This document shows positions 8,609 through 35,260 of a DNA stretch of 64,000 nucleotides, in pieces. Both the position numbers and the translations under genes were made by a program. Below the pieces are notes generated by a model. It made no database searches. It was not told where the DNA came from and saw only the letters and a list, made by a program, of their open reading frames with translations. The first letter of the stretch is position 1. Every line of letters starts with the position of its first letter. Location: NCBI GenBank assembly GCA_050084515.1, contig CM114271.1:19530001-19594000 (forward strand). Direction: 5' to 3'. The DNA is from Blasia pusilla. Its lineage: Eukaryota.

Positions 8609-8740
8609 GGGACTTACTCACTTGACTATTACAAGTGAATGTGGGACCTTAAAAAGGGTAGATTGGATTCTTACGGGACTTACTCATATGAATATTACAA
8701 GTGAATGGTGGACCTTAAAAAGGGTAGATTAGATTCTTAT
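8609..8740. repeat. Two-copy tandem duplication of about 66 bp
   Basis: ggacttactca...attacaagtgaat..ggaccttaaaaagggtagatt.gattctta occurs twice in tandem. Confidence 0.8.
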
Positions 8741-11700
8741 GACCGTGGACTCTTAGGAATGGAGTTTCCCACTAGAACAAATCCAGGACTCGCTGAAATT
8801 TGGCGCTCCTAAGACCAAGTTGAAGGGTTGCAGGGTTCAGACCTTCAACCCTTCAAAACACCGAATTCACTTCCAGTTCAAAGGTAGGAGTTTTCGTACC
8901 TTACATGCCTCTCTCATGCCATAGCCTGCAGGAAGATCTCCAGAATTCGCTCCAAAAAAGCTACAGGAATGGGCTTCAAGCGCATCTATCTCCATGGATT
9001 CTCTTATGGATACAACAAAACGATCAAGAGGAGGTTTTCAGATGTGACCGGGAATACGGATTTTGGTTATCTACATCAAGAGCATCTTCATTGCTGGTAG
9101 CAAGATGTGCATGTTCCTTTATTTGAGAGAGGAATCCGTCAGTAGTTCAATGCATTGAGGCGACCACTTGGACCTTAGCTCCTTATCGCCTCCACAAAAG
9201 ACTCTCCAGCTGACAAGACTTTTGCTCAAAGCTTCCATGGCTGACTCCTACGCTTTGCTACAGATCCTTCCTGGACTGCTGACACGAATCCCCATCCAGC
9301 CACCACGATTGAGATCTTGCATTGCCAAAACTGCCCTCCAGAGCCACCTTTTCAGTCTGCCCACGGATGTTTCAGAGTGTGAAAGAATTCCTTCGGAGAT
9401 TTGCAGCCTCAACTGATAGCAGATTCCCTTTCGCCCCCACGATTATCTCCGGTTTGTGACCGCTATCTCTTTGACTGCCTGACAGGCTTCTCGCAGAGAC
9501 TCCATGATTAACTGCAGCATGTGGCGAAGCAATCTTCGTGGTTGAATCCATGATTACCCCCCACGGCGTTCGCTGGGTCACGGTGTCTTCTCCCTACAGT
9601 TCAGCTTTTCCCACCAAACCGGGAGTTTCCTCAATCTTCAACGCGTGACCCCAGAGTCCAGGAAACTATTCGACACACTTACTCTGTTCAATGCGCTGGA
9701 AAGTGCTCGAGTTTTTATTGGACGTTAGATCTGTGAGATTCTTCACATGGAACATTAGTCAGGAAGTGTTGTCGACATTCTCTGCTTAAGATGGGGCATA
9801 ACATGAATTAAAGATTTTGCCCCTTACAGGGACAAAATATTAATCAGTGCACAAGGACTCAGAACGAAACTGACGGAAATTGAGTTGGATGGGCAGTGTC
9901 TACTTCCACGCCAGGAGAGGGAGTGGCCAGACTTCAGGTACTGAAGACTTCCAGGCTACAGAAGGATATAGATCCTCGAGAGGCAAGTTCACTTTAGAAT
10001 TGGTGGAGTTCGAAGAACCACAGGTTCTCTTGGGATCACTGCAACTGGTTTGCCTGAACCAGTACCTATCCACAGGGACGAATGGAAGTCTCCCTAAGCT
10101 TCGAATGTCCTCTCCGTATGAGACTCATTCCCCACTGACCCAATTCAGAGGACTGTGAGACTGAGCCAATTTGGGATCAAAGAGCAAATAGTACCTTGGC
10201 ATATGTACTCTTGTAATTCAAGTAAAGGGACTGGAAACTAGAGAGTGACCTCATGCTGAAGACTGAAGTATATTTTGTTTCTCGTCTTGGATCCCAAAGC
10301 TTGAGATCATCTGCAATCGTGTATAATCATAGGTCACTCTCTTCGACTGTGCGGCTCAAAGACATAAAGTTCAACAGCAGACATCCGACAGGCTCGAGAA
10401 TGGCTGTTGCGTTATGTTAGGACTCTTCAGAGACACGCATCTCCTCCGTACCATGAGTGCTATCTTGAAGTCATCCCTCTACTATTCTTGCGACATCCAC
10501 ATCGCTTAACTCTCAACTTCGATACATTGGTGCAAACGCTACTAAAGAGTAAAGTACAGAGTGCTAGTTTCACTACTGCGTTAAGACGAGAAATACAATC
10601 AAACTGTATAACACCCAGTACACATGACACAAAAAACAACATCAAATCCACGACAAGCGCAGGTCTGCAGGAAGAACCAAATGAACCCAAGCTGCACACA
10701 ACAAAGCCAGTATCTCCTTCGTGTGCAGTTCAAGAATCATACATCGGAATGTGCGAATTCATGAAGCTCGAATCCATGCACTACAAGTCCTAGCACCGCT
10801 CCCGGCTTTTCCGTCATGTAGCTCCCTACACCGACTGTCGACTGAAAGCTGCGTGAGCCATGAATAACGACTTGAATTGTGATCCGACCAAATCCAATCT
10901 CCGATACGACTATTTACTAGTAGCGACGCCGCGGCTGAATCATGCCTCGTATCAGATTGTGGCGACGAAACGCCTCACGAGTGGCCGTATTTGGAATTAG
11001 GGTTTGGCGATCCGTCCATTTTCCTCCATTTTAGGGTTAGAGTTCTCGGGATGTACTTTCTACATGAACGAACGATTTTTGGATTTTCTTCAACTTTTTG
11101 TGTTTTTATGTTGCTACACCCTAATCTTCTTTTGATTTTCAAATTCTCTTAGATATTGCATGTGCTAGTGTCACACATGCAATGGATGTCTAGAGGTCTT
11201 TTGGTTGATGAGTTTCTCAAAATCCTTTTATATCCTCATTTAGTCATAAAAATCTGATCTATCTTGCTTAAAATATTTGCCATAAATATCTCATTCGGAA
11301 AGTTTCATATCATATTTTTGTCATTTGAAACATGGAAAGTTTTCGAATTAGATTTCTAAAGTCAACAATATTTTCCTAATATCCTAAAGCCATCGAAAAT
11401 ACTTTGGGCATGTTATTGAATGAAAAGTCAAAAGTATGCATGTCCAACTCAAGGATGTTTATCATGTTATTTGTAGTATTCACTCGCTACTCCAACTTGT
11501 ATTGGAGTAGTGAGTGTTTACCTTATATACCTAAAGGGTTTGGACATCAATATCTATCAACTGAGGATGATATATTAGTGAGGATAGGAATATGTGTATA
11601 TGTATAGGCTATCCCCAATTTAATGACAATTTTTTGCTATTTAGAAAAACTTGCCCATATGGGTGAGGCCTTTATTTTGGGCATTGTTGACTTCTTTATT

Positions 11701-11850
11701 TGGAATGTGCGTCTTGAGTCACTATTGTGAGTTACGGTTGGAGTATTGTCGTCGCAATGCTCATAACCAAATGAGTGTCAATGAGGACGATTGGAACTCT
11801 AATGGGCTTACATAAGGATATAAATGTTTTAGAGTCTTAGTAACGAGGCA

Positions 11851-11983
11851 TGTTGTGCACATAACCATCACTACACAACGTACATCATTATCACCAAACA
11901 CAAACGCATAAACACAAGATATTAAACTCACACATGATATCTAAACATTTAAGTTGACCAAAGTTGTAAATCGTGGAAGAATG

Positions 11984-12067
<84 letters not shown>

Positions 12068-12818
12068 GGCAAGGAGAAATATAATTTTGATGGCTCTCCA
12101 TGTTTGAGGTCAAAGCAACTCAACCCTTTAAATATGCATTAGAGAATAAGATAGTATTGGAAAGCTTGTGAGGATATACTTCCAAAGATCCATACAAGCC
12201 TATAAGCAAAAGTCCTAATTCATAAACAAGATCAAAAATATCATAATAATACTTTGGGTTGAGGATCAAAAGGAGCACCCCAAGATGGATTCTTTAGATG
12301 AAGAAGAGGACAATTTTTTTTCTAGAATTATATTTAAGAGGAAGGGTCTTAAAGGGAGTTTGGAACTTGAACCCCATCTTGGGAACCACGAGGGTTGAAC
12401 TAAGGGCACGAAATGGATTGAAAGGTTGGCATTGGGATTTTGATACCAGAACAAGTCAAGGTAGTCCAATTTGGATGCTTATCTTGGACCTTGACCCAAA
12501 ACTTAGCTATTGGGTTTTGATAAGCTTTTTTGAAGTCTATTGGACAGTCGGGATTGCCAAATATTTTAATTTCATTTCAAGTTCCTAGACTATCATAGAA
12601 GTCTATCCTAAGTCTTGAATGCCTTGCATGTGTTGGAGAGTAAGGAGTTAGGTTAGTATTTGACATTGTCTAGATTTTTTGAACTTGAGGGGTTATCCCA
12701 TATCTTGACTCAAGAGACGCAAGGCTAATGGGCCCAAACTGGGGCTAGTTACTACTTTAAAAAGGGGCTTTTATCCCATGAAAAAGGTAGTAAAAGGGGT
12801 CTTTTTTGTGTTGTGACA
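11851..12818. mobile_element. Degenerate LTR-like element containing a (CT)n tract
   Basis: Begins TGTTGTGCACATAACCATCACTAC, similar to other termini in the window. The 12300-12480 segment is an inverted homologue of the 6424-7290 LTR. The right end (TGTGACA, 12818) is tentative and no TSD was found. Confidence 0.45.
11986..12064. repeat. (CT)n microsatellite
   Basis: About 79 bp of perfect dinucleotide repeat. Confidence 0.98.
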
Positions 12819-12829
12819 CCATCCCTAGG

Positions 12830-13520
12830 AGTGGTAAACTACCACAAAAAAACCGTTGCCTTTTACCCTTGCTCATATGTCATAAAGTTTTCCATCTAGG
12901 ACGAGGTAAAAATGTCATAACTTCCCATATTTTTTTAGACATGATATATTATGACGTCTCAAGGGTAGTAATGATAGTTCTACCATCCTTCAAAGGGTGG
13001 TAATGTTATTAGGTCGAGAAGGTGGTAATTTTTTTTTATCTCCCCTAGCCTAATCTAAGATAAGTTTACCGTATTATAAGGGTGGTAAATATTTTTTACC
13101 GTTTGGTAGGGGACGTAACTATATCTTTCTAGATGTTGCAAAGTTTTTCTACCTCCCTCTAGTAGTGGTAATATTATTATGTTGATAGGGTGGTAAACTT
13201 CATTTACCACCACTCACACATAGTAAGTTGACCTCATTCTAGCAATGGTAAATTAATCTTTACCTAGTCTAGGGATGGTAACTTTATCTCTTAATGCAGG
13301 TTGTAAAATTATTTTGTTGATGAGGGGGCATGATAATATATGTATTTATCCATTGCTAAGGGTGATAATTTCAGTTTATCCCTTGGAGGGCATAGTAATT
13401 TACCAATTACCTAGCCCATTACCAAGGGTGGTAAATTGAGTTTACTCCTAGGAAGGAATGGTAATTTACCCAGTGTGAGAGGTAGTAAATTAGATTTATC
13501 TAGTTCATGGAGTGGTAGAG
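12830..13520. repeat. Array of (A)GGGTGGTAA-like motifs in both orientations, probably a DNA-transposon subterminal region
   Basis: Many degenerate gtggtaa/ttaccac copies with irregular spacing. Confidence 0.6.
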
Positions 13521-14859
13521 ATTACATAATTTGCAAAAAATGAATTCCATGAAACAAATTATTCACAATTTTATTCATAAAAGAGGTATACACAAAATCG
13601 ATGAACGCTTTGTTAAAAACATATACAAGGTACTATTATCCTTAAAGTCAATCCCTAGATCTACGACTTCAATGTGTCAACTCTCCAAGCACTCTATCAC
13701 TACATCCATCTCTACAAGCATCACCAAAGGGTGATGTTGAGGGTTAAAACATAGAGGAGGTAGATAGTGGTTACGTTGGTCTAGGACCATCCTCGCTACC
13801 TTCCTCCTTCCCATCGTTCGTTGAATCATCATCCAATGAGTCTTCAGATGCACTATGGTGTAGATTTTAACTTCTAATCCTCCTTGCCTCACCCCAAAGC
13901 ACTCCCGACCTTGATATTTGCAAGCAAAAATCTTGGCTTGAGTCTTAAAGGTTCAACTGGTTGAGCATTCCATCGGTAGTTGAGACATTGTCAATTAAGA
14001 GTTATTCGGTTCTAAGTCTCCCCAAGTGCATACTAGCTTGTCTTTCTAGGAAAGCTCTTTCCCAAGCCCAAAATATTCTCCCCAAGTCATTCCTCTAAAC
14101 TAGAGCACGTCGGTTATTTCCTCAAGATGCTTCCCAAATGGTTCCTTAGCTCAAACCTGAAACATGACCAAATACGCATTTTAGTTAATCCCTTATTCAT
14201 GGACTTGAGTTGGTAGGGAGGGTGACAATCGCCTCACATAAGTACTTTTGGGGTTCTCCAATGAAATCCTACCTTTCCCAATGACCACCTTGAGCCCTTC
14301 ATTTTGGCCCAAAATTAAACCCACACGTGATACGCAACACACAGACCCACATCTTGGCCACCAAGGTACTGAAAAAACAAGGGCAGGGGAGTTGTTGGGC
14401 ATGTTCATTTTTGTACAACTATGCCAAGACCCCCCACTAGGCTGGTCATAGGCAACAAGCAAGCTCGCCTTTTAGGGACCTCCATGTTATCACTCTTGTA
14501 ATTTATAGAACTATAGACACATGGGCAATAGTTTGTGACTTGCTTCATAGATCTCCGCTAGCATGAGTGTCTCAGACTAAGGTATTCATGACACTACCCC
14601 ACTTAGCTGAGTCGATGTCCTCGTTAACTTGAGTTCTTGGCCCCCCTCCCCTCCTAAAAATTTTTTTTTTAAAGGAAAAAGGGAAAAAAAAGAGCATATG
14701 TAGGTAATCCTTGGGTTGAATTAATCAATGTCTTAAGTTTTGGCCTAGTCCTTTCTCTAGACACCCAAGCTTTCGCCAACCTATCCGGATTCCCAACATG
14801 TTGGGTCATACTAAGTACATAACACTTAGAACCCATTTTTGGTAGCAAATCGCATCAAG

Positions 14860-15411
14860 AGTCATTAGGAACAAAACTAAATGGGTAGAAATTTGCAAGT
14901 ATGACTTAGTCTAGACAAATGACTAAGCATGTCACATCATCCACTTCATTAGATAAGTCAGAGGGCTGGCCAAACTCCTAGAGTCATACAACCCAAATGG
15001 AAATTGTAGCATGCCACGTGTTTCCCTCTTGTAGGATACAATCTGATTAAACCTTGCCAAAACATGGTGTATGACTAGCCTAGTCCTACATCATAACTCC
15101 AACTACATACGTGGCTATAATTATCACTACCAATTAGCTTTTTGTAGTCCACGTCATTCGATGAGCTAGCATCCATGTCATGTGATGAGGTGGCATTCTA
15201 TCCATGTCATCTAGATGACATGACAATCATGGAGCATAGCAGCTTGGTTTAGTCATATATCAACATCCACGTAAGATAACCCTTCTAGTTGTAAGGGTCA
15301 TGACGGGTATATGACTTGGCTTTTGTATCTACATGAATCATAAATCATTTCCAATTGTGGAATAATATAAATGACTCAAATGAGTCATAAAACCAAGATT
15401 TTCTTGTAGTG
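14860..15411. mobile_element. CACTA (EnSpm) transposon end
   Basis: Terminus TTTTCTTGTAGTG (reverse complement CACTACAAGAAAA) ending at 15411, preceded by dense ATGAC/GTCAT subterminal repeats. The partner end was not found. Confidence 0.65.
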
Positions 15412-15900: not shown

Positions 15901-17794
15901 AAAGTGGTAGTAAAGGGTCAAGGGAAAGATGGAGTGAGAATGAAAGAAATTTTGAGGGATGTGATTCATAAATTGAGAGAGTTGAGAGTTGTATTTGATG
16001 AGAATCAAAATCAAATCTAAGAATTAGCACAAGAAGTTGAGAGAGAGTGAGTGAGAGAGAGAGTTCATTAACCATGTGTGCATTAACTTCTGAGGAGAGT
16101 CAAGAAACCTTCAGGTCACAAGCATTGAAGGCCCATACAACATATAGAGTATTGGAGATGAATACCCAAGCATCATTGATACTCATAATCACAATGGCAT
16201 GTAAGGTAGAATTATATAAAGTAAGTCGAGTTATGAGGATAATAGACGATTGGATCACTTGTATTAAAATCCACTTATCTCTTTTCAACATCGATAATCA
16301 TATTGCAAGGATGTTTGTAAGATCTTGGTTATTAGATCAAGCATGAATATGGTGTCAAGGATCGTGGAGATCCTTGATTGAAATGGGTCAAAAATACACA
16401 TGGAGTAGGATAACGTTGCCAAGCAAGGGATATTGAAAAATTTCCAAGTTATGGACCCCATCCTCACTACGAGAATAAAACTATAATAGAAATTGGAGTA
16501 GATAAATTGAGAAACTTCCTCGAAGTGTAGAGTTGGAGAGACGAAAGCATAATGAAGAGTTGGAGTTGAAAGTCATTCGGTTCGTACGTTATAATGTTAT
16601 CTTGAAGATGTCTTGGATGGAACTATACAATTCATAGGTAGATTAGAGAAAAAAATTGTGAAGACCCGAGAGTGGAAGCGTTACGGAGGCAAAGTTAGAT
16701 CATGTCCTACAACCTTACGCCTAATGTAATAGGAGAAATTCCCATTAAAATCTAGATGCATATTTTCATGGTTTATTATGAGATGTTGGTGAATTAAAAA
16801 AAAAAACTTGGAGGTACTAAACAAGATGAGAGAAATACTGGAAGAGTATAAGGAAGTATTCCCAAAAGAATTACCATCAAGGTTATCCCCAAACAGATGA
16901 TAGACCATAAGATTGATATCCTTCTAGGAAGAGAGTCATCTTGTAAGGCTCTTTACTATCTTGATTCAAGGAAATTTGAATAGCGTAAAATCCAAGCGGG
17001 AAAGTTGTTGGAGAAAGGCTTCATCTAACCAGGTGTCTTGCCATATGGAGCCCCAATTCTTTTCGTTAAGAAGAAAAATGGAAGCATACAACTCAATATT
17101 GACTATCAAGCACTAAATCAACAACGGTGGAAAAGAAATATCCATTTTAAAAAATGGATTACTTATTCGACTAACTACAAGGAGAAAAATACTTCATCAA
17201 GCTCGACTTGAGAAGAGGCTACAACCAAATTCAAATTACGAATGAAGATGTCATAAAGACTACTATTTGCACTACGTATGGACACTTTAAATACTTAGAT
17301 ATGCCATTTGGTCTCACTAATGCACATACAACTTTAATCAATGATATCTTGCATTCATATTTAGATAATTCTATCATTGTATTCTTAGATGATATCTTGT
17401 TCTATAATTAAACCATAAAGAAGTATAGAAATTTTCTTTGAGAAGTCTTTCAAATCCTATGAGATAATAATTTATATGCTAAAGCTTCAAAATATGAGTT
17501 TTGCAGGACATAATTTGATCATCTTGCGCATCAAGTAAGCACAAAAGAAATTTAAGAAAAATTTGAGAAGGTAAAAATAATCCAAAAATGGGTGCATTTG
17601 AGTATCAAAATCAAGTGAAGAGTTTTCTAGGATGAAGAAGATTTTCTCCAAGATTTGTCAAAGGTTTTATTTGAATTGCATAATCCTTGACAACTTTATT
17701 AAGGAAAAAGACAAAAATATAATTAGGTTACATGGCAAGAGATTGATTTCCAATCATTAAAGGATGTCTTTATCAATGCCCTTACTTAATTTTG

Positions 17795-18320
17795 TAGTAG
17801 TATGATCCTCATCGACCTATCAAGTTGGCCACGGATGCATTAGGTACTACCATTGGGGGGAGTATTACAACAAGAATGGGAGAATGGATGGCATCCAATT
17901 GACTTCCTTTCTCGCAAGTTGTTGCCAATAGAGCAAAAATATCACACAATGCAACCGAGATAGAAGAACTTTCTATTGTATTAACAAACAAGCATTAGAA
18001 ATATTATTTGGGCTATAAGTTAGGAGTTTATGGTGGAGATTGATCATAAGCCCTTATAGTAGTGTGATCCTCATCGACCTATCAAGTTGGCCACAGATGC
18101 ACGAGGTACTTCCATTGGGGGCAGTATTACAACAAGAATGGGAGAATGGATGACATCCAGTTGACTTCCTTTCTCGCAAGTTATTTCCAGTAGAACAAAA
18201 ATACCATACAATGCAACCGAGAGAGAAGAATTTTCTATTGTATTAGCAAACAAGCATTGGAAATATTTTTTGGGCTATATGTTAGGAGTTTATGGTGGAG
18301 ATTGATCACACGCCCTTTAT
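17795..18320 (+). repeat. Tandem duplication of about 262 bp in the RNase H region of the chromoviral Gypsy
   Basis: gatcctcatcgacctatcaagttggccac...gtggagattgatca occurs twice. The antisense ORFs 17809-17991 and 18071-18253 are near-identical. Confidence 0.9.
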
Positions 18321-21300
18321 CTACCAACAGTCCCAAAATGAGTTATCCAAATGAAAAAAATCAATGGGCAGAATAGTGACAATAATTCAACATGGAAATT
18401 TTCTATGTCAAAGGAAAGAAGATGTTGATAGGCATCTTGACTCATATGCCATAAATAAATAATATGTTTCAAGTGGAGATTCTTTTGTGCGCATACATAT
18501 CTCTATACAACATATATCATTGGTCATATCCATACCACACAACACCGATCTTCCCCCCACACACGGGTAGATCCACACATGTACAGAAATCAACTCATAT
18601 ATATACATGGAGATCACATAACCACCCCTTAGCTGGCAGTTGGATCCTCCTAATTCCACATAGAAAATATCACATCTCCCTAACATGACCTACTACCCTA
18701 TACACATCTCGGATATATCCATCATCACGTGGGAACTACATCAAGAGGGGAGTGGGAGGGTCAGACATGACATATGTCACCCTCAAGAACAACCATCACA
18801 TACAAACATGGTGGCTACATCCCTCGCAGATCGGCACAACAAATACTTCAAGCCTGTACCACTTCCAAGCTCAGATTCACTGTCCCGTCCACGTTTGGAA
18901 GGTGATATGGCGCACAATTGCGCACATGATCCTTCCAAACCATACCATCCTATCCCTCCAACATGAGGACTCCCATCGATAATACCTTGTGCATACGTAG
19001 GATCGTGGGCCTTATAGTGACATCTAGCGTCGTGGATGCTGCTTGCTATAAATATATGTAATCTCTAGGATGAGACCTCATAATCCCTGGATAATAACCT
19101 CCTCCACGAATGGTCGCGTACCTCAATGTATCCCTATGTTGAGCAATAGCTAAGTTCTCAAAGGCCATGGTCATAAATCTACAAAAAAATAGATGTGTGG
19201 ATACAAGAGAACACGATTGTATCCACATATCTAGATCATCAAGATCTAACACCTTTGCCATGTCACGTCAAATAGCTGCAAGTAAATTTGGCTCTCTCCC
19301 AAAGAGCAAAAAGTATGGTAAAAATGACGCCAAGGATGCCTACGGACTAAGTGATAACCCATAGCCAACCATGGCAACTATAGGTCTGACTCCCTCAATT
19401 GTCCCCGCTGCAAGCCAGACTTGCATAATCCTCTCTTCACCATCTGTACTACTCTCTCCGCCAACCCATCCGCCTAAGGATGATCTCTGGATGTGGTGTG
19501 GTGATCTATCAACGCCTGATCACACAAGGCCTGAAACTCTCCCCTGAACTTGGTACCCTTGTCAGTCAACACCTCCGCTCGTGCACCAAAGTGACTAAGC
19601 ACACGACCTAGAAACACATAAGTTGTTTCCTTGCTCGCCTTTTCCGGTAGTGCCACCAACTCTATCCACTTGGAGAAATGCTCCACCATGACCAACACGT
19701 ACCTATGATGACACCCCGTCAATGGCAAAGGTCCCGCGAAGTCTAAAACCTAAACCCATAATCGGAAAAGGATGTAATTGCAGAATGGGAGCATTAAAGG
19801 ATGCTCGCACTTGGTCACATACCATACATTTGGCTACAAACTACTGTACCCCAGTATGCATGCGGCGTCACCAATACTGAACCTAGGGTAAGTTGTAAGT
19901 ATGCTTTACTCCAAAAGGCCCCAACTCCTCATGGGCATGTCACACTACACGTGCTCGTTGGGAAGGATGAGGTACCACTTGTATCCTACCATCTCCCCAT
20001 ACCCGCAAAATGTGAGTCCCCTCCCACCTGAACCTCCTGGCTCTCTGTAGGATCTGATCACGATCCCTAGCAACTCATTGTGCTCGTTATGACACCATTA
20101 CATAAGAACTCCACAACCTCCATGTCGTCATGGATATCACGACCACGTATCACCTCCACACTGACCTCCGGATCCAAAGACTCATCATCCAACCCCACCA
20201 CTAGAATCACCACCTGCGGCTGACCTTCCATAGTCAACCAACAAAGATAGGTAGATGCATGCCAATCGAGCACCATCTCCTCATCACTATCTCCGTGTCA
20301 TTGAGCTCTTGTGTCGTCTATCTAACTCAGACATAGGTTATGATTCAACCCATCTGCATCTTGGTTCAGCCGACCAGGCGTGTAAACCACCTCAAACTCA
20401 TACTCCTATAGTAGTAGAGCCAACATGGCAAGCTTTTCGGACTTCATCAACCACCTCAATGGGTGATGATCAGTGATAAGTGTGAAAGGGTTTCCAAATA
20501 AATAGCACCTGAAATGTTTCACGGCCCATAGTGCAGCCAAGCAATCTCCCTTGTAGGAGTTGTACTTCGCCTCTGCAAAGTTGTTTGATTGGCTCGCGTA
20601 AGCCACAACAATGGTATATGGTGTGTCCCAAGTACTCAATATGCTCCTGAAAGAATCTGCACTTTCCTAGATGCAACTTCAGTCCATGTAACTGCAATCT
20701 CCGAAACACCTCCACTGGATGTCGCTCATGCTCCTCAACCTTTGAATCGAAGATAAGAATATCATCTATATAACACCGTACAAAATCCAAGCCAGCCAAA
20801 ATCCTATCCATCACTCTCTGAAACTTTGTGGGCGCGTTCTTCAACCCAAATGATAAGAATCACCACTGATACAAGAAATCTCTCCCGAACCGATCTATCC
20901 CCTAGAATGCTCTCTTCTCCCTGTCCTCCAACCTCATAGGAAGATGATGATAGCCACCATCGAGATCTAAAGTACTGAAGATCCTTGCATGCACTACTAC
21001 ATCAAAGATCTCCTCAGGAGTAGACATGGCATATCGATCCGACTTTTTTGGTCGGTTGATAGGTTGGTAATCCCCCCATATCCGCCTATCCCTCCAATTT
21101 CCATACATATCCTTCTTCGCGGGCATGATTGTGGCAGATGCATAGTCCCCATGTGATAACCCCACAAGTCTTGACTCCTACTCTGAATCAAGACTCGCTC
21201 CATATCAGAATACCTGTAGGGTTGACGAAAGATCGTCATATCACTAGCCAACTCAGTCGGTAACCCGGGACCCTTCAGCGTACCCAAGTCTCTCATACTG

Positions 21301-21699
21301 AAGGCAAAACAATTGACATGCCCTCTCAGAAACCTATGAACTTATAGTTGCTATCCTTCTATCAACTTGAGACCTATCATAGGCTCCCAAGTCTACATTG
21401 TGACCTCACTCCGAGAGGATGTAACCTCCGGCTTTGGTTGCTATGTAACAACCCTAGCCACCTCCGCGAAAGCCACTCCACTCTAACCTCCTACACCATG
21501 CTCCACATCCAAAAAATGAACATGTGCTGCTCTGGCCATCTTCGCACTCCCCGCTCCAACGATGTCCTAGGAAGTCTATGGGTGCCTATCTCTCCTCATC
21601 CCGCCCCCAGCCAATGCCTATACAGCCCCTGTAGGAAATGCTCCAACTCGTGGATGTGACGGCATGGATGACACTTGCATCCGTCTCTGCTCACCCATG

Positions 21700-22650
21700 C
21701 ATAGGATGACTATCCATATGAGATACTTGAGGTCCATTGTGTGCCCCAATACCTGTCTCTGTGATGCCTCAATCATACTTGGCACCGCTGTAGTATCCGT
21801 GGCGAATCCCATGGCGCGCTCATGCTCATCTGCCATAGGCCCCTCCAATGCTTAGGTCATCTCATCCCAAATCATGTCTGGCCCTCCCTGAAAAAAGGCA
21901 TGGGATGTTGGGAAGCTCACCAAGGTAGGTAAGGCTGCCCTCAACTCCCCCACCCTATTGGCTATCGCCAACGGTGGTCTATCATCCGGCGTCACCACCT
22001 TAGATCGACGCCCTGAGCCCAAAATAACATCCACCGTGAGATGTGGTGCTCTCTGAACACCATCGTATGCTTGACTCAGTTCCTCTGATGGTATGAGGTT
22101 TGTCCACCATAGCCGTAGACGATGGGCACGTGATCCAACTCTCACTACATCTAACAACACAATAGGTCCTAACCAAGACCTGACATGATGCATACTCGTT
22201 ATCACACGTGCACGAGTGTCTCCCAACAACAACACGTTCTCCAAAATGTACGCTGGAGAACATGTCTGACTCTCTTGCAAGTGTCGCCCTACTCGTAGCA
22301 TCTCCCAAAACATCCTTGACCTCAGATCTTGCAATCCAAACCCTCGGCCAACTGATGAATGACCCTCACATGGCCATCCAACAATCACCAAATGAATGGT
22401 GCCAATTCTATCCAGATCCTACGCCCCTACCAGAGAGATGTCAAGGAGTAGTGTATGCTCATACCCCCATACTGTAGATACCGGGAACAACTCACGATAC
22501 TTCTGGACCAATCTCACCACGTGACGTAACGATACTTGCCGCGCGGTCTCATCTCTCTCCACATAAAGGTACTAATGCACTCGTATGCCCGCCTGCAACA
22601 CCGTAGCTAATTCCATGCTAATCTCTCCGAAGAGATCTAACACCCTAACA
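21700..22650 (-). pseudogene. C5 cytosine DNA methyltransferase domain (DNMT3-like) embedded in the retroelement polyprotein
   Basis: One frame with three premature stops. Motif I VLDLFGEIS, II YVERD, III DISLV, IV LVIVGWPCEGHS, V GLQDLRSRMFWE, VI YILENV, VIII SRAHRLRLWWTNL, IX EHERAMGF, X QRQVLGHTMD, in canonical order. Confidence 0.9.
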
Positions 22651-25600
22651 TCCTCCTCTAGACACGACCATACAACAAGTGTGGTATCAATTGGTGTCAA
22701 TGTCTCCACTCTAGGAGCCCAATTGCCACCTGACACTTGCTGCTCCAAGATAAAGGCATGACTCCACGCCTCTCACGAGGTTTTCGGCACTCTTCTTAAG
22801 CTCTCGAGTCGTACCCCACAATGATGAAGAGGTCTTGCCAACATAGGAAGAGGCACCCGCCATGGCCTGTCTCTCGGTGGGACTATCCGCTATTGGGACA
22901 TCCTCCGCATGGCCGTTCCCCTCCAACAATTCTCCTGGCAAGCTAATACTACTTGTGAAAGCTGCCAATGTGGTCATAGACTCGTCTTGCCATTGACCAC
23001 CTTGTCCCGGAAACTGCATGGGTAACTGACTCATCCGCCCATCATCTGACCGCCACCTTGGTCGATAAGCAACGGTCTCCTCCCAGAAGTCAAGGATGAA
23101 TCCTAGGGGATATAACACTATGCTCCCCACCAACACATCGTACGACTCAGCTGGCGTCATAATCGCACGCGTGCGTACCATAGCAATATCCATCGCATGC
23201 TCTGGCTGGACTATGACAAATTTTCCTGTCAAGTCATATACTGCATGGATTCAGGAGCGCAACCCTTGATGTTAGGCGACCCCAATCGAGGTCTATATCT
23301 GGAAGGGAAAAGGCTCAATGTCGGCCTTCCGTAACCCCAACTCTAAACACGCCACCTTCCCTAACATCAAGGGTTGCGCTCCTGAATCAAGTAGGACGTA
23401 CATTGCCCCTGTCGGACTAACCAAGCGAAATACTCCAGCTCGGTTATCCAATAATACCACGCAAGGTGTCACCATGGCCCGCTCTATGGCCAGTCGAGCT
23501 GGCATATCTACCAACTTTGCCGCCGCCGCATGCCATGACTTAGTGGGGGATGTCCCAAGCACTTGCTCCGAGGGCAAGTCCACCACCTCCTCAACTATCT
23601 ATGAACGAGAGGCAATTACCTCTCCAGGCTCACACAACGTGGCACCCTAGCCAGAACACCTCAGCTGGTCCAACTCCCAACGTTGCCAACTCTATGGCAG
23701 AAAATAACGGAGCATGGCTCACCTTGGTGGCCACCTCCAACCCTATGGTCGATACTCACCCCACTCAAGCCACCATAGGAGCTGCCACTCCAACTCCTCG
23801 TGACGTCGGCGCACCTGCTTGACCTGTAGGCATCATTGGTTGTCGAGGCACCATCGATGGTGTGTGTAGTGCCTTTGACAACGTGAAGGATTGTGGAACT
23901 CTAGCATGCCGCCCATCGGTCTCCTCCGGTGGGTCAATCTTAACTCCACCTATTGATGGCTCAATGCCTCTCGCAGCACCTCGAGTCACCACTGCAGCGC
24001 CTTAACCTGAGCCGCACTACACATAAACCCCATCTTAGCGAGATCCTCACCCGAGTCAGGGTAAGAGGTGGAAGTAGGAGCCACACTAGCTACTCTCGGC
24101 TCCATGCCTTCCTTGAGCTGCATCATCGTCATGGCAGCAATCCTGTACTCCAATTGATTGATGCACGAGAGAAGTGCCATCTCTAATGCTCCCGCTCCAT
24201 CTCCTTTGGCAGGTAGTGGTCCTCTACCACCACGTCTAGCAAAAACTCCTCGACCTCTTCCAGGACGATTGTCCCTAGGCCCTCGGCCTTCCTCTGCACG
24301 TGCCTCTCGGCGAAGGTCAAAACATCTATCCCTAGTGTGACCATATATGTGGCAATAGTCACACTAGTACTATGGTGGGGCCATCTTCTATGGCTCCTGA
24401 GCAATCAGAGGCGCTCGTAGTCCTCTTCCATGATGTGGACAGTCTCTGTGCCTATGGGCCCCTCCACACGTTCAACAAGACACCATCGGTCCTTGGTGGG
24501 AAACATATGTAGGTATGGATTGTTGCCTCATAGGCTCATAGTACCCGCCCTGCTCTCTAGGCACAATGGCCCGCTCCCGTGGTACTGGTGCTCTCTGTGG
24601 CAGTTGTGAGGTCACTCTCGCTTGTGGATCCATCGATTCTCGAGAAAATCCAGCGGTCACTTCCTGCTCCTCACTCATATTGAGCTCAATACGCTTAGAC
24701 AACTCGAAGACTTCCTTCAATGTGGGCTTCGTTGTATGAATCAACACCACATCTCGGACTCTCCTCCATAGTTCTTGGTCCAGAACCTCGTACCAATACT
24801 GGACTCACTACGCCTTAATCACTCCATAAGTAGCAATGATCGGCCTCCTCATGCGCGTAAATGCCTCTCTCAGACTCTCACCCGATCGTCGCTGAAAATC
24901 TTGTAGACTCTTCAGCTTATCGGTGCGTACGCCTTGGTAGCTCTTCCCCAATTGTCAAAAGAACTCCACTGTGGGACTATAGCTGGGTGACCCTATTTCA
25001 CCAGAGGTCTCTGCCATATTTCCTGTCTCACTGCCCTCCTCTCTGTCTAGTCTCCATGCTGATGGTGAGGGTCTATCTCCTCTTACAATCCCATCATATG
25101 CCTCGCGAGCACTAGTGAACACATACCCTGGAGCCCAATACATCCTCTAGGCATCGATCTCTACTGAATATAGTGATCAAAACTCCATGTAATCATCCAT
25201 CAGAGGACCCTCCAAGTGCTAGAACAACCCCTTCCATGCCATGAAAGGGTTGAACGGTGTCGGGGTCCGTATATCCTGGAAATCACACCACGTGTCAAAC
25301 TCTTGGATGAAGTCATCTTAGTCGATGGTGCCCACTGCACCCAAGAAACGACGCATGCTCGGTGGCCCATGTCGTCCATCTCCTGCCAAGTGACATTGTC
25401 TCCATATGCAATCTCGTAACCAGACCCGTTGCCCAATGATGAAGATCCAGCCATGGATGGAAATTGATGTAGCTCCTCACTCGTAACCCCTCGGTATCTC
25501 ACTCCACTCTGTATCACACCATTAGTATTGCTCGCACTACCCCGTTCTTCCGAACCCGAGAAGAACGCCGTGATGACAACCCTATCTCACCCGCTCAAGC

Positions 25601-25845
25601 ACTCAGACTCACCAAGAGTCTCCCACACTCCTCACTAGCTTACCTACGCTAATGGTAATCCCGTGACGGCACACCCGGCCTAAAACTCCACTCCTCAATC
25701 TTCATGGGCATATCAAGCCTCATCCACCCTGTGCTATCAAGGAATCGAGACGCTAGCATTCAATCCTAACTCACACACATGAGCAAGAATGATACTCCAA
25801 CGGCCCAACATGAGAAAGATGGCATGGGAAAGCCATCTTCCTCCC

Positions 25846-25852
25846 TTATATA
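25846..25852 (-). promoter_or_regulatory. Putative TATA box of the DNMT-PHD element (same motif at 39352-39358 in copy 2)
   Basis: Minus-strand CCTATATAAG is conserved in both copies about 275 bp inside the 5' terminus and points toward gag. Confidence 0.6.
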
Positions 25853-27495
25853 GGGTTGGGAAGAGCAAAAAGGCTCTTTCCCTAAAAATAGTTATCCTCT
25901 TGGTAACCTACACGTACAGGTTACCAAGGGGGGATGACCTGCTCAACAAGCCACCTGGCTGTGAAAGACCTCAACAAGAATGTTATAAAAAACAACGTTC
26001 CTCATACAACAGACCTATCGTCAACCTCATCCGACACCTCGGGACAAAGTTACACTCAAGACAGTCCTCTGGCTCCTATGCCCTATCCACGATAGATCTC
26101 AGCCTATCGTCTACTCAAATGTGAAAATTCACTCTAGTTGGTGGAAAATGTTGACCAAAGCAACAAAAGGATGATGAAGAAATTGTTATGGTTGTTTATG
26201 CCAAGAAAGCACAGAAGGCTCAAGGATTGGTTTTCCATAATAGTAAAGTATGGATCCCACAAGATCTAAACTAACAAACTCGAGTATTATATGAGGCTCA
26301 TGATATAAATATTTTGGGTCGTATGGGAGTTGGAAAAACCTTGGAGGAGTTACGACGGATATAGTATTGGCCCAAAAGGAGAGAAGATGTTGATGCATAA
26401 GTAACGAGTTGTATGATTTATCAACAAATCAAGGCTAATAACACAAAGCCAACACGATTATTACAACCCGTTCGAAAAGTTCATAAACATTATGAATAAG
26501 TTAGTATGAAATTTTTTTATTACCATGTAAAATCATGGGATACAAATCTATTTTAGTGTTTATGAATTGACTAAGCAAGATGATACATCTCCGTCCAACC
26601 AAGAAAAAATTTCATCGCCCTAGAGCTAGGTAGGATCTATGTTAAGACCATCTTTGTTCATCATGGTCTTATGGGATCCTAAAGTGTTTATCACTAATAG
26701 ACGAACCCACTTCATATCTCTATTTTGGAAGGCCTTATTTGGATTTCTCCAAACTAAACTAGCAATGTCTATTTCTTATTACCTTAAATCAATGAGTAAC
26801 TTAAAAGAGCCAAGTGTACCATTGAAGATATGTTGTGGACATTAAAATTGGAGGATCAACAAAGATGATACTTATTGTTACCATTGGTAGAGTTCTCGTA
26901 CAATAACTCTACAAACTCTTTCATTAAAGCAACATCCTTCTTTCTAATGTAAAAGAGAGCATTGTTTGATCCCTTCTAGTCTCACTCGAATAGGGAACCT
27001 TCCAATGGAATGTACAAAGATATCAGTCATGAGTTTGTGGATGAAATTCAAAAAAAAGTTCAACTTTCTAAAGAGAAGTTGTCTATTGCCCAAACTCAAG
27101 AAAAAAAAAAGTAGATGATCATCATTGAGGAGTAGAGTTTTCTAAAGGAGAGAAATTTTGGTTAGTAACAACAAATTTATCATTAGTAGGTATGTGTAAC
27201 CTTAATCCTTGCTATATTGGGCCTTTCATCATTCTATAGAAAGTGAGTGTCATGATGAGTAAGCTAGACATACCGATGCATTTGAAAAATCCATCATGCG
27301 TTTCATATTTCTCTTTTTTGATCGTTTATTCCATGTCCTAAAAGATTTGAGGATAATATTTGCCCTCCAAAATTACCTCAAATGGTAAGAGTGTAAGAGA
27401 TCATGAAGAACGCATCTTGAAAAACTGCACTCTAGGAGCTTATCACCAACGAGTCGAATCTTGGTCCTATTGAAAGTATATCCATTATTTGAGGC

Positions 27496-28214
27496 TATCG
27501 TGCGAATACACATCGCTGCCAATATACATCGACTGTCATGCACACACATGTCTAAGATTCATCTAGTTATGAATCCTAACACTCTACACATGAACGATTG
27601 GACAACCCCAATATAAAGTTGAATACCCATTGTAAACTCTGATGGAATCTGCTATGAACCGTGCTTCATCCAAACAGCCATACTCATGATTCGGATACAC
27701 ACTGGTGAAACAACAAGAGAAAGTATACAGAAGGATTCCCAAAAGGTGTGATCTCCTTATTGATCACTCATTGCCCACTCTTCAAGAGAGAATCCAGGCT
27801 GAATACATGCAAGCCGCGCTGTATCACGGATCCCAACAAGGGTCTACAATCCTAAGGAGATAAGCTCCAAATAAGTCTCATTCGAGGTATACCCCCCCTG
27901 GGCACCTCCATGGGTGACCTGTACACACAGGTCACTTCCTCCCAGCAGGTCACCAATGACCTGTAGTACCTAAGTACTGACTCCTTCACAACTTCATATG
28001 TGGTCCCCTCATGAGACCAACTACCAACTAACCCATGATCCTTTAGGTTCAAGTGGATCCATAGATGGTTGGGAAGGTCAACATGTCCAAGGTTGCCACT
28101 CCTCATAAAGGGAAGGGTGACCTACACTCGTAGGTCACCTCCTATGACTAGGTCAAATATGATCTTTCAAAATAGGAAAATACTATCTCGTCCTATGCCT
28201 CATCTACCGTGACA
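27496..28214. mobile_element. 719-bp non-coding element related to the termini of the DNMT-PHD element, followed by a truncated head-to-tail second copy (28217-28290)
   Basis: Left end t(a)tcgtgcgaatacacatcgctgccaatatacatcg and right end atctcgtcctatgcc...ccgtgaca. Carries GGTGACCT-arm palindromes. A second left end starts at 28217 after the 2-nt spacer gt. Confidence 0.65.
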
Positions 28215-28386
28215 GTTGTCATGCGAATACACGTCGCTGCCAACATACATCAGTTGTCATGCACACACGTGTCTTAGATCCATGTGACGTTGTCGTGTCG
28301 AGAGCCTTTCTTCGAGTAAGGGCAGGCCTTCTAGCTACGGCAGACGCGGTGGATGTAAGATGAACTCTCTGAGAAGATCTTCTTTT

Positions 28387-29625: not shown

Positions 29626-32610
29626 TTATTTTTTTTGTGCCTCTAGACACATTGAATCGAAATCAAGAAATCCCTCATGTCTACGGAAAATCTTGACCCT
29701 TTTTCCTGCAATTGACAGCTTGAGAATTGTGCCATCTAGTGCACGTAGTTTGTAAGTGGCATTGTCAAAAGCAAAGACTACAACGTATGGACCAAACCAA
29801 CGACGTGCAAACTTCTTAATTGTACTATGCTGGTTGTCGAGGCTATTGTCGTGCACCAAGACCCAATCTTCTTCTCTTATAGGCTCCTTCCGAAGTCGAT
29901 GCATTTTGTCGAAGCGCTCCTTATTTTTCAACCTTGCTTCCTTCATTTTGACTAATGCTTCTGCAATATCTTCTTCCCGCCGCTCTAGCTTGCGCATTCG
30001 GAGTGCTAGGAGCTCTTTCCTATCGAGCCCGTCTTCCCACGGCAAACCCATCAAAGTGGGTATATCTCCTTCTGCTGGCAATATCGGCTTTTGACCAGTT
30101 ATCAACTCTGTAGGCATGAACCCTGTAACGGTGCTGTGAGTGGTTCTATCTACCCATAAAGAAAATGGAAGCAATCTAGGCCAGTCAGCATAACGATCTC
30201 CACACGGCTTTACCAATGCTTGAATAATTGGCGCATGTCCCCTTTCGCTCTTTCCGTTTGCCTTCGGATTCATGGAGGTTGTTAATCTCAACTGGACTCC
30301 ATATCTCTTGGAGAACTCTCGTGCTTCCGCTGCATTCAACTCACCTCTATCTGCACGGATTCTCCCGACACTCCCATATCGAGCAACAATATCCTCTAGA
30401 ATAAAACGACATATAGGCTCTGTTGTTTTAGCTCGTAAAGCCCTCCCTTCTACAAAGTTGGACAACTCTTCTCGTGCTAGGACCAAGTAACGTATTCCCC
30501 AAAGACCTAGTGGCATAGCAACTAGATCTATAATCCATTGATGATGAATAGACAAAGGATATGTGGGTTTAAGTCCATCTCTCACCCTGATTTTTTTATT
30601 GAAACTGAAATTCAACACATGACCCAACATATCTCTTAACATCCTTATATAGGTCTTTCCACCAATACCTCTCTTTTATCTTGGTGAAAGTTGCCCAAGT
30701 ACCTCTGTGTCCTGCCCATAAAGAATTGTGGAATTCTTTGAGCACTTGCATTTTTGTCCCATTGTCATCCACCACCCTCAAGGGCATTCCATCTTTCCTC
30801 TTTGGCCTTTTCCAAAGATACCCATCTTGTAGTAGATAGCCATACGCCTTATGCGGAATCTCCTTGAAGAACTTGTCTGTCCACCCTCCGTCTCTTTGCA
30901 GAGTGCTTAAATAGCGCCCAATTTCTTTTAACTTGCCCTCATACAAATTCTCTTTGAAGGCTAGAACATCCTCTATGCCACCTCGTTCTTGAGATAACAC
31001 TTGCCACACATGTGCATCATCCTCATTTATCTCACTTGCCTCCATATCTTCTTCTTGACTAAATCTAGCTCTAGACAATATGTCAGCTACTGAATTCTCT
31101 TTCCCAGCTATATGCTTCAATTGTGGATTCAAGGACCTAATGTAGGCTATCCAACGTAGCATGGCTATATCTGGAGTCGTACAATTCTCAATCATACCCA
31201 ATAGAGGTAGAAAATCAACCTCAAGCAATGCATAGGCTCCCATAAGATACTCCTTCTCAGCTTTCATTGCAGTTACAACTCCCCAAAGCTCCCTCTTTAT
31301 CTGAGGGTACCTCCTCTATCGCTCCATGAGTGTACGAGCTCCAAACCTTGTTGCAAATCTTCTTCCTTCTGCATTGTCGTGCCCAACTGCCCACCCGATA
31401 GCAATAGGTCTAGTGTCCACTGTGATGATAATCGGTCTTCCGCATTCGTAGCTCATTTGTTATAGAAGTGGTGGCGACTTCAATGCCTCCTTCAACTGCA
31501 TCCTTGTTGCTCTTTGCTTCTTCTCCCAAGTGAACTTCTTCTTCTTTCTCAACAGCTCATACAAAGGATCAGATATGTGGCCAAAATGAGGAATCCACAT
31601 CTGATAAAACACACAAGCTCCTAAAAACCTTCTCACTTCGGTGATGTTTTCGCATTCTCGTATCCTCTCGATAACATCAACTTTTGCTGGATTTGGTTTT
31701 CGGCCAAACTCTCCACAAAGATGACCCACTACCACAATCTGAGGAACTCCAAAGCTACACTTTTCTCCAGAAAGAGTAAGATTGATCTCTTCTAGTCTTG
31801 TTAGGATCATATCCACATCAAGAATATGATCAGACACAAACTTTCTACATCCATCTTTCACAACCCTCTCAATCCTATCTTCTATTGCACATCCCTTTAT
31901 AAGAATATCATCTACAAAAGGAATGGTCTTCTCAGGAATGAACTCTCTCAAGATTTTATTCATTGCACTCTGCATGTGAGCGACACAATTTGTTGCTCCT
32001 TGAGGTAATGTGCACATTCTTATAAGCCCAAGTGGAGTACGCATAGTGGTAATATCTCTACTCTCGATAGCTAATTGGAATTGATCATATCCCGAGTGCA
32101 AATCTCCTATCGAATAGATAGCACGGGCTGCAAAAGCTTTGCGACTTCATCTATTCTAGGCCCCGCTCCCATATTTCGAATGGTTACCTTATTTGTTGGT
32201 TGCATATCTTGAATGAATTGGAGAGCTCCTGATTTCTCCGGCACAGTGAACCATCGACTCCAGTAAGGCCCCATAGATGGCTCTAAGAAACCAATCTGCA
32301 TCTTCTCCTTCAATAACTCAATCAGCTTGGGAATCATAGCTCGTGGTACTGGTATGGGTTTCAAATCGCAAGGCACATGTGGAATTGTGAAAATTACCAT
32401 CGGTGCTACCACACTCGTGTCTACACAACCAATTTCTTGTGTAGTAAAAGAGAAGGCCTTACCATGTCTCCGTAACATCTCCCGAAAACTTTTCCTTTCA
32501 ATTTTTGTGAGAAACTCATCCCCTCCAATTTGCAGACGATCTAGCGTCTCTTCTGTGAACTTATGTCCTATCTTCCTCACATCCGGCAGACTTGGCTCCA
32601 TTGATGCACG
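29626..32610 (-). mobile_element. Ty3/Gypsy pol fragment (RT, RNase H, integrase), 5'-truncated, non-chromoviral
   Basis: RT LPQGATN and PFVDD. Integrase H-H-C zinc motif (FHNSLWAGH), IIDLV, ADRGE, NGKSERG and WFGPYVV. Several frameshifts and stops. Confidence 0.93.
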
Positions 32611-32629: not shown

Positions 32630-32790
32630 CCAGGCGACGGAGCTATGGTCCCTTGCCTTCTAAGTGTAACCCAAGCCTCTCATTAGGAGAGTGGGTTTGG
32701 TTTGACATTGAGAGAGATATGTGAGAGTATACACATGTGAGAACTATGATGTTCTGTGAGAGATTGGATCTTATTTTACAAAGAGAGAAT
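32630..32790. repeat. Dispersed repeat shared with 53410-53540
   Basis: gacggagctatggtcc...gtgtaacccaagcctctcattaggagagtgggtttggtttgac is near-identical at both loci. Confidence 0.8.
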
Positions 32791-33634: not shown

Positions 33635-35107
33635 ATGTACTTTGTTTAGGCCGCCATCGTCATTGCAGTTTTGTCATCAATTAGTGATGGCAGGTGACCT
33701 CGGGTTATGGTGTTTGAGTTTTCATTTCATGCTACTATGTTGTGATTGGTAGTCGCTCGACGACGATCGAGTACCGGGCCGTAACGCTCGTAGTCGCAAC
33801 GCGCCGTTGATTGCCGTGTCGTGCCGCTCGTGGCCGCACCGCACCGTCTCAATCGCGGAGCCGCTCCTTCACTAAGGAGCAGAGCGTGTGAATTTCTGAT
33901 TGAGGAGGGTATGCCGCCGAGTGCCGCACCCCATTCCCGAGTGCCGCACCGTTTGTAGTTGTTTCGTGCCGCCATTGTTGCACCGGACCGCTAGACCTGC
34001 ATCGCACATCGAGGAGGTTTGAGCAGCGTCAGTACGAGAGAAGTACGACTTGCTCATTGGAGGAGTTGTCTTCACGACTGAGTTGGGGTTGAGATTTGTA
34101 GTTGCCGAGGAGCGACATCGACATTATTTTCAGGTTACCCATTCTGGTCTCTTATCCTACACATGTGAGGGATTTTCGGGTATTGGGAAAGTGCCCAACC
34201 ACCTAGAAATAACATCGACCATCTCTATAGCTCTAGACATTGTAACAAAATAATCGTGACGCCTTCCACCGACACCAGGCCATGGAGTTACAGGAAAAGA
34301 ACGAGTCTCTTCCATTATCTAAAAATTACGGCAATAAATACGCCCAGTCATTTCTTTATTACCATCATACTCTCTCAACATAAGAATAGTTGGTTGAACT
34401 GCAACAAACAACTCCTCACCCTCCATCCAAAAATCGTGATTGGCCACAGTAGTCTCAATCTCTTGTGCCTTCTCCCTTTGTCTCGCATCCCTGCCATTGA
34501 AATACTCCCTAAAAGCATTGGTGGCAACCATGGCATGGAACGCCTCCCTCAATTCTAAGACGCGTCCCAACATGATAAAATTTGTCGTAAAGCGTGTATT
34601 TGCAAGAAGCAACAATCGTCTCTTCATTGGATTGGTTTCCACGAATTTGGCCATCATCCAAGTTCTAGTCTTGACAAATACTACCATCTCACAAGCTTGA
34701 GCAAAAAATCCTGTCCAACCAAGGCCATTTACCCCACTCTTCGCAGACTAGATCAAGAGAATGTGATACACATCCATCCCAAAGAATATGAGGGAACTTT
34801 GTTTCGATAAGTTTTTCCTTCTGCTTGGTCATTGTTAGCATTGTCTGTCACAAGTTGTAACACATTCTCTAGACCAATGCGCATGATAGTCATTGTCGTG
34901 CGCAGACATATCGCTAAACAACATACATCGCTGGTCACATCTACACCACACAACACCGATCTTCCCCACACACAGGTCGATCTACACATGTACAAAAATC
35001 AACTCATACATATACATGGAGATCACACAACCGCCCCCCTAGTTGGCAGTTGGATCCCCCTAACTTTAGATAGAAACCATCATATCTCTCTGACATGACC
35101 TACTACC

Positions 35108-35260
35108 CTATATACATCTCGGACACATCCATCGTCCCGTGGGAACCACATCAAGAGGAGGGGTCAAACATGACATATGCCACCCTCGGGAACAACCATC
35201 ACATACCAACATGGTGGCTGCATCCCTCGCAAATCCGCACAACATACACCTCAAGCCTGC
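35108..35260 (-). CDS. PHD finger at the integrase C-terminus (domain of the decayed element polyprotein)
   Basis: CMLC...MLVCDGCSRGWHMSC...VPTGRWMCPRC matches the C4HC3 pattern with the conserved Trp. Confidence 0.93.
   Translation of the reverse strand, partial: AGLRCMLCGFARDAATMLVCDGCSRGWHMSCLTPPLDVVPTGRWMCPRCI

Follow-up and report, generated by a model that had tools for sequence, protein, structure and literature searches.

The subject of this report is a repetitive element at positions 18483-26126 of a 64,000-nucleotide stretch of Blasia pusilla DNA (assembly GCA_050084515.1, contig CM114271.1, positions 19,530,001 to 19,594,000; hereafter the window, in whose numbering all coordinates are given). 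It is a dead short-form copy (copy 1) of a retrotransposon of the streptophyte "Gypsy-DNMT3" type. Both this copy and a second one in the window (copy 2) consist of a 5' terminal block A, a coding region and a 3' terminal block B, and it is very probable that they are short forms of a family characterised by split direct repeats, whose long-form members read A1-coding-B1-nn-A2-B2, with nn a spacer of two nucleotides. It appears probable that what reverse transcription copies is B-nn-A, and we lean slightly towards both propositions holding jointly. Because the family has long direct repeats, we regard the window copies as a short derivative and not as evidence for replication without repeats.

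Our Pfam analysis of open reading frame (ORF) fragments from copy 1 identified the C5 DNA methylase domain PF00145 at 21852-22418 (E = 9.2e-5), the reverse transcriptase domain RVT_1 at 20470-20859 (E = 2.1e-18) and the integrase core rve at 19474-19749 (E = 3.4e-11); the PHD finger scored in a relative (L004, E = 2.7e-8). The Ty3/Gypsy pol order of protease (PR), reverse transcriptase (RT), RNase H (RH) and integrase (IN) is present (RVT_1, RT_RNaseH, Integrase_H2C2, rve), a DSGA protease motif and a gag CCHC knuckle (C-x2-C-x4-H-x4-C) are readable in the element ORFs, and, as in Gypsy-DNMT3 elements, a C5 DNA methyltransferase domain lies within the Gypsy polyprotein. The region of copy 1 is C-rich on the plus strand. 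Copy 2 is 81-85% identical to copy 1 and lacks the segment that matches 21845-25669; copy 1, for its part, has lost the last ~25 nt of A together with the primer-binding site (PBS). Within copy 1, the stretch 23248-23388 holds a perfect 29-nt inverted repeat, and the protease active-site peptide DSGAQPLMLG can be read on both strands, which identifies the stretch as a small inverted duplication.

A first-pass annotation of the window had assigned both copies exact common ends of the form TGT...ACA, flanked by 4-bp target site duplications (TSDs), and we find the same: the left ends read TTTTGTGCGCA in copy 1 and TGTCGTGCGCA in copy 2, the right ends ATGTGAAA and ATGTAACA, respectively, and the duplications are ATTC/ATTC and TCAT/TCCT. 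It was also right that the terminal blocks are unrelated, the best word-7 blastn match between them being 27 nt at 74% (E = 0.21), and that the right-end block contains a TATA box (CTATATAAGG, minus strand 25844-52, ~275 nt from the 5' end of copy 1). Short-word searches of the ends against the whole element revealed no internal copy of either block, only 10-17-nt chance matches, and repeat searches within both copies found neither a long terminal repeat (LTR) nor a split repeat. Since tRNAs end in CCA, a tRNA-type PBS would begin with TGG; the intact leader that follows the 5' block of copy 2 starts with ACATGAG, and neither the leader of the window family nor that of its relatives begins with TGG, in agreement with the proposed lack of such a site. 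By contrast, the idea that removal of the elements restores host ORFs did not hold up, as the joined flanks give one stop-free segment of 76 aa for copy 1 and none of at least 60 aa for copy 2. The ends of TG...CA type and a duplication within 4-6 bp agree with a metavirid, whereas two identical bounding LTRs that abut the duplication are lacking in the window copies, which have none, and in their relatives, in which they are split. The proposed absence of an LTR pair is thus true of the two window copies, which ordinary LTR finders would indeed miss, and untrue of the family, whose relatives carry A1...B1-nn-A2-B2.

A search with the DNMT fragment found 24 longer homologous proteins, mostly from Marchantia polymorpha and Calypogeia fissa, 22 of which contain PF00145; the closest, from these two species, are 57-72% identical, which suggests a liverwort-like bryophyte as host. 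An alignment of 17 of these proteins was used to retrieve 80 metagenome loci, ~70-77% identical to copy 1 in coding DNA, whose layouts were read by self-comparison and by annotation with A and B probes. Twenty-one of the 80 reach a 3' end. The A-coding-B-A-B layout, absent from the two window copies, is found in ten of these as B1-nn-A2 (L004, L024, L014, L040, L042, L059, L073, L076, L033 and L074), with B2 also present in eight, while the remaining eleven are short forms in which B is followed only by unrelated flank (L009, L012, L013, L016, L018, L022, L027, L045, L077, L051 and L061); three pairs sample the same site twice (L004 = L024, L033 = L074, L045 = L077). In the long forms the A pairs are 89-95% and the B pairs 90-94% identical, and A2 abuts B2 to the nucleotide in seven of eight; the sole long form with filler at this point is L014, with 19 nt (TTGTGTTATGATAGTACCG, at 10837-10857). 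Both ends of the relatives, ...TTCGCACGACA in B and TGTCATGACC at the start of A, have their homologues in the window ends, and among ten distinct relatives with both ends the 4-bp duplication is perfect in seven (two long, five short), has one mismatch in two and is unclear in one. The short L022 and the long L040 have a common 3' flank (95-99% identical), so that one site may occur in both forms, unless the contigs are chimeric. The alignments contain no column by which A1 could be told from A2 or B1 from B2, and A1 and A2 are reciprocal best matches in two of four pairs among 28 sequences, which is consistent with regeneration of the repeats from one template.

The window itself holds the long-form layout as well, in a 5'-truncated remnant of a different subfamily at 27496-28283. 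Its B1 and B2 are 86% identical over 65 nt and its junction reads ...GTGACA GT TGTCATGCG; no A1 partner of this remnant was found. Upstream of its B1 lie ~90 nt of GC-rich 3' untranslated region with a AGCTAGAAGG tract, which extends the feature to 28370.

Two motifs mark the inner edges of the blocks. A polypurine tract (PPT), AGCTAGGGGGG(C/T)G, stands directly 5' of B1 in all 21 related loci and of B in both window copies (it reads CCAACTAGGGGGGCG in copy 2). In the relatives, the leader directly after A1, ACTCAAAGAAC, pairs with GTTCTTTGAGT, which lies 31-33 nt after the TATA box; pairing was scored in 18 of 22 loci, the anchor not being found in the other four, and in 16 of these 18 the leader and the primer segment form at least 9 of 11 Watson-Crick pairs. 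The window family has ACATGAGAAA after A, also seen in the loose-end consensus of 13 contigs of the source-organism run X3, and this pairs with TTTCTCATGT, 36-45 nt after the TATA box, in a 10-bp helix. Between the two lineages both partners have changed in five of the ten pairs, without loss of pairing in any of the five, and there are more double changes within the relatives (L046, L031, L022). MAFFT aligned the primer segments of both lineages column for column and split the PBS columns, and the pairs were counted by script. Complementarity and covariation of this kind would fit self-priming, with a transcript start that is predicted solely from the position of the TATA box. A self-type PBS that abuts A and a PPT that abuts B1, not A2, agree with the placement of these sites in metavirids only if B-nn-A is taken as the LTR.

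The B1|A2 junction itself reads ACA-nn-TGT. The spacer is GC in L004, L059 and L073, AT in L014 and L040, AC in L042 and L076, TC in L024 and GT in the window remnant; with the GC spacer, the junction is the palindrome ACAGCTGT.

The A blocks contain two further secondary-structure elements, at window positions 25821-25840 and 25904-25927 and also in related loci, e.g. in A1 of L033. A copy of the PBS sequence just after the TATA box and the predicted primer segment make up a hairpin of 9-10 bp; the primer segment thus has two alternative partners, the hairpin arm and the PBS. Further 5' in A there is a palindrome, GGTAACC...GGTTACC, which copies 1 and 2 have both kept and which has a counterpart in A2 of the remnant.

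Contigs from four public runs of the source organism were compared with the window, and their depth, summed at the boundaries, supports these independently. At the left boundary of copy 1 it rises from 3-26 outside to 1,900-55,600 inside, and at the right boundary it falls from 2,100-15,200 inside to 34-584 outside; at least two contigs of other runs start to match exactly at 26127. For the family, the summed depth is hundreds to thousands of times that of the flanks. Contigs in runs X1, X2 and X3 join 18616-18624 to 25666-25670 through 19-30 nt, and the inner edge of block B of copy 1 was set by these joints at 18616-18624. In the element sense they consist of A, the T-rich end of A and the start of B, which shows that the source organism has an A|B junction.

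From the position of these motifs we infer the transcript ends, the mode of priming and the cDNA form that integrase would cut. Transcription would start ~30 nt after the TATA box in A, and the first ~11 nt of the RNA would fold back onto the complementary PBS directly after A and prime minus-strand DNA, in the manner of Tf1 and Tcn1, while plus-strand DNA would start at the PPT directly before B. If the PPT marks the plus-strand start and the PBS the minus-strand start, the repeat rebuilt at both ends of the cDNA is B-nn-A, i.e. a permuted LTR. Since every insertion starts with A (TGT) and ends with B (ACA) between 4-bp duplications, integrase would have to bypass the outer ends of the cDNA and act internally, where B meets A in the palindromic ACA-nn-TGT. 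In the case of ACA-GC-TGT, a cut 3' of each ACA would yield two recessed CA-3'OH ends with 2-nt 5' overhangs, which is the normal geometry of the substrate. We propose such cleavage of a circular or tandem junction tentatively. The first-pass annotation had also postulated a non-canonical replication mode; the part of that proposal which survives is an end-to-end junction of circular or tandem type, and the part which does not is replication without repeats.

According to this scheme the long form retains a complete B-nn-A with B after it, could have arisen from a molecule with the end of A joined to the start of B and opened at one junction, and would be the sole form to give an RNA with U3-R at its 3' end. 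The short form could have arisen by deletion between B1 and B2 after insertion, by integration of a one-repeat circle or by trimming of both ends of a linear cDNA. It should not regenerate its promoter, and short A-genes-B copies probably cannot replicate.

Several observations sit uneasily with the permuted-LTR scheme. No integrated copy carries B-nn-A at both ends, so that the permuted LTR is deduced and has never been seen as a pair, and where the transcript starts and is polyadenylated can only be guessed. On a simple two-repeat-circle model the mirror form, A-B-nn-A-genes-B, should be just as common as the long form, and it is absent: B stands upstream of A1 in none of the 22 loci with A1. 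To account for this one has to assume in addition either that the 337-bp repeats collapse fast or that extension is directional and confined to the right end. The family tree is star-like, and two of the four A pairs and most B pairs are not mutual best matches. All 80 loci are decayed, none being intact or young, and their open frames on the element strand do not exceed 545 aa. L022 and L040 are only 91% identical in their interior, as against 99% in the flank, and metagenome contigs over a high-copy repeat may be chimeric. Few source-organism contigs show the A|B joint, at least 1-4 per run among the 15 of 123 joints listed, and the B|A junction of the exact window family is not among the contig ends listed (15 of 123 joints, 24 of ~3,770 loose ends).

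The alternatives differ in what is copied and how it is joined to the target. Within the order DIRS, the Ngaro, PAT-like and VIPER elements have the layout A1-internal-B1-A2-B2, with an internal junction of two ends, and elements of this order rely on a tyrosine recombinase and are not known to duplicate their target. Our family formally has the same layout as Ngaro, PAT-like and VIPER elements; it differs from the DIRS order in its rve integrase, TGT...ACA ends and 4-bp duplications. A strict DIRS/Ngaro-style cycle would copy the whole A1...B2 from a near-full-length RNA, with B1-A2 as a splint that completes or circularises single-stranded cDNA and with integrase in place of the tyrosine recombinase. 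We consider this unlikely. The layout is the one expected, being common to the split-direct-repeat tyrosine-recombinase elements and, by its published description, KnitGypsy-Dnmt3 (PMC5890265), and the precise A2|B2 junction in seven of eight long forms could be merely inherited. Set against this, there are no positions specific to A1 versus A2 or to B1 versus B2, and the PPT exactly at the start of B and the PBS exactly at the end of A indicate two-jump synthesis of the LTR type. Also, 4-bp duplications are present, and the Pfam matches in the integrase region are rve and Integrase_H2C2, with no match to Phage_integrase among the fragments scanned.

Slightly less likely still is that A-genes-B itself replicates, as an LTR-less element that uses a circular or tandem template, or that its integrase moves as DNA in the manner of Ginger transposons. 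Ginger1 and Ginger2 combine a Gypsy-like integrase, TGT ends and short duplications with terminal inverted repeats and are not known to carry gag or RT. The window family is like them in its integrase, its TGT ends and its short duplications, and unlike them in that it contains gag, PR, RT and RNase H and that any terminal inverted repeat is limited to a few bases. As no inverted repeat links the ends and both gag and RT were found, the likeness to Ginger and the DNA-transposition mode put forward in the first-pass annotation are not borne out. Replication of the A-genes-B unit is what both window copies, short forms with duplications, would suggest, together with the 11 short 3' ends among 21 (perfect duplications in L009, L022, L027, L045 and L051), the deletion derivatives that retain both ends (copy 2 and the A-B contig joints) and a short imperfect inverted repeat, TGTCRTG, common to the ends. 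But an RNA started at the TATA box of A would lack the first ~300 nt, with no downstream copy to restore them; the long form is present in relatives, in source-organism contigs and in the window; and one site apparently occurs in both forms (L022/L040). Furthermore, the ends have no terminal inverted repeat beyond 4-7 nt, and the conserved PPT and co-varying PBS point to RNA-templated copying whose boundaries are sensible only with B-nn-A. That this is a Gypsy element of the usual LTR type, in which decay, nested insertions or misassembly have removed the LTRs or made them unrecognisable, is hardly credible, for although all copies are old and broken and copy 1 lacks the end of A and the PBS, the same layout, exact ends and duplications recur in two window copies and 21 loci from several assemblies, and depth shifts at the same boundaries in four runs.

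Self-priming is known from the Tf1/sushi elements. It has been predicted for most Tcn1 elements of non-seed plants (PMC6317226). The PBS of our family is likewise complementary to the start of its own, here predicted, transcript and not to a tRNA; the Tf1/sushi and Tcn1 elements, however, have ordinary LTR pairs and a chromodomain, in place of which we find split repeats and a PHD finger. The split-repeat layout of Gypsy-DNMT3 is a known oddity and already in print: the legend to Fig. 4c of de Mendoza et al. (2018) gives the repeats of KnitGypsy-Dnmt3 from Klebsormidium nitens as A-coding-B-A-B, "the same as that of a DIRS retrotransposon" (PMC5890265). As far as this description extends, KnitGypsy-Dnmt3 and our family have in common these A-coding-B-A-B repeats and a Gypsy-type pol with a Dnmt3-like cytosine methyltransferase; our family differs in its host, apparently a bryophyte of liverwort type, and in the position of DNMT between protease and RT. 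In a distant 1999-aa relative, P0024, DNMT lies between RNase H and integrase. A 2026 preprint refers to "streptophytes (Gypsy-DNMT3)" in passing only. We found no description in the literature of the ends, duplications, PBS and PPT positions, palindromic junction or short form of Gypsy-DNMT3, of which the figures and supplements of PMC5890265 may hold more, and the literature that we found on split direct repeats in connection with integrase was tyrosine-recombinase work only. The mechanistic anatomy, i.e. a PPT before B, a co-varying self-priming PBS after A and a palindromic B|A junction, appears to be new.

Cleavage by integrase of the palindromic LTR-LTR junctions of retroviral 2-LTR circles has been reported (PMC1180852, PMC1905944). 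Judged by the accessible portions of these reports, the proposed action of integrase on an internal palindrome of two abutting ends has a parallel there, with the difference that in retroviruses it is a side pathway on a ligated junction, whereas here ACA-nn-TGT with its 2-nt spacer would be built in and used at each insertion. It is conceivable, and we put it no higher, that these elements are an integrase-bearing Gypsy lineage with an RT-regenerated repeat that is circularly permuted relative to the integrated ends, which always integrates by a cut at the built-in ACA-nn-TGT and is intermediate between LTR elements and those of DIRS/Ngaro type. The family allows one to test whether integrase makes routine use of an internal end junction, and an integrase element with split repeats and defined motifs is a concrete system for studying how split-repeat architectures work; its DNMT and PHD domains also connect the family with host chromatin. 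There is also a practical side. The short form has no repeat pair, and the A pair of the long form is not bounded by a duplication, PPT or PBS, so that neither form fits the expectations of LTR finders, and the annotation of repeats and the dating of insertions in bryophytes could be biased. The relatives in Marchantia and Calypogeia and the high depth in the source organism make this relevant to annotation.

Coordinates of the two short-form copies, their parts and flanking duplications, and the long-form remnant in the window.
Feature	Position	Strand	Remarks
Copy 1, short form A-gag-PR-DNMT-RT-RH-IN-PHD-B	18483-26126	minus	many stops and frameshifts
TSD ATTC, left of copy 1	18479-18482
TSD ATTC, right of copy 1	26127-26130
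Block A of copy 1 (5' terminal)	25670-26126	minus	TATA 25844-25852; predicted primer segment TTTCTCATGT 25808-25817
gag of copy 1	25353-23998	minus	tblastn with Marchantia proteins
PR of copy 1	about 23643-23023	minus	tblastn with Marchantia proteins
DNMT of copy 1	22772-21495	minus	tblastn with Marchantia proteins
RT of copy 1	21147-20614	minus	tblastn with Marchantia proteins
RNase H of copy 1	20612-20226	minus	tblastn with Marchantia proteins
IN of copy 1	20071-19420	minus	tblastn with Marchantia proteins
C-terminal/PHD region of copy 1	19336-18866	minus	tblastn; aligns with PHD-bearing tail
Polypurine-like tract of copy 1	18622-18636	minus	CCAGCTAAGGGGTGG; adjoins 5' side of B
Block B of copy 1 (3' terminal)	18483-18621	minus	ends ...GCGCACAAAA, decayed from ...GCGCACGACA
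Copy 2, short form	34894-39632	minus	internal deletion of gag-PR-DNMT
TSD TCAT, left of copy 2	34890-34893
TSD TCCT, right of copy 2	39633-39636		one mismatch
Block A of copy 2	39153-39632	minus	complete, with T-rich 3' end
TATA in block A of copy 2	39350-39358
Predicted primer segment in block A of copy 2	39314-39323
Predicted self-priming PBS of copy 2	39143-39152	minus	ACATGAGAAA; directly after A end; complementary to 39314-39323
Small inverted duplication in copy 2	39054-39140
PHD region of copy 2	35111-35374	minus
Block B of copy 2	34894-35031	minus	polypurine-like tract before it at 35032-35046
Remnant of different subfamily, 5'-truncated, long-form 3' end	27496-28283	minus
B1 of remnant	28217-28283	minus	followed by GT spacer
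A2 of remnant	27563-28214	minus
B2 of remnant	27496-27562	minus

The window contains several further repeats. A second Gypsy pol lies on the minus strand at 29626-32200 (RVT_1, Integrase_H2C2 and rve, with longer open frames, of up to 349 aa), with copy 2 just upstream of it in the sense direction; no DNMT or PHD was detected in it, and its ends were not found. The long-form remnant probably is not part of this element, whose RT is ~25% identical to that of the DNMT family and which ends without PHD. Directly to the left of copy 1 there are two tandem 262-bp units, 91% identical (17792-18315), and at 17124-17588 an RT-like fragment on the plus strand, 28% identical to a Marchantia pol. At 52980-53080 there is a terminus that resembles B, TGTCGTGTGCATACACATCGC, with 83% identity to the start of B in copy 2 over 41 nt. 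Behind it lie two inverted repeats of 214 nt, 53132-53342 and 53542-53743, which are 80% identical to each other; a stretch of 92 nt at 53421-53512 is 88% identical to 32639-32727. Finally, the solo LTR with a 5-bp TSD reported earlier at 6424 is indeed present, as an 866-bp solo LTR-like unit of another family (6424-7289) that starts with TGTCGTGTGCC, ends with ...GGTCGCGACA and is flanked by ATTAA/ATTAA.

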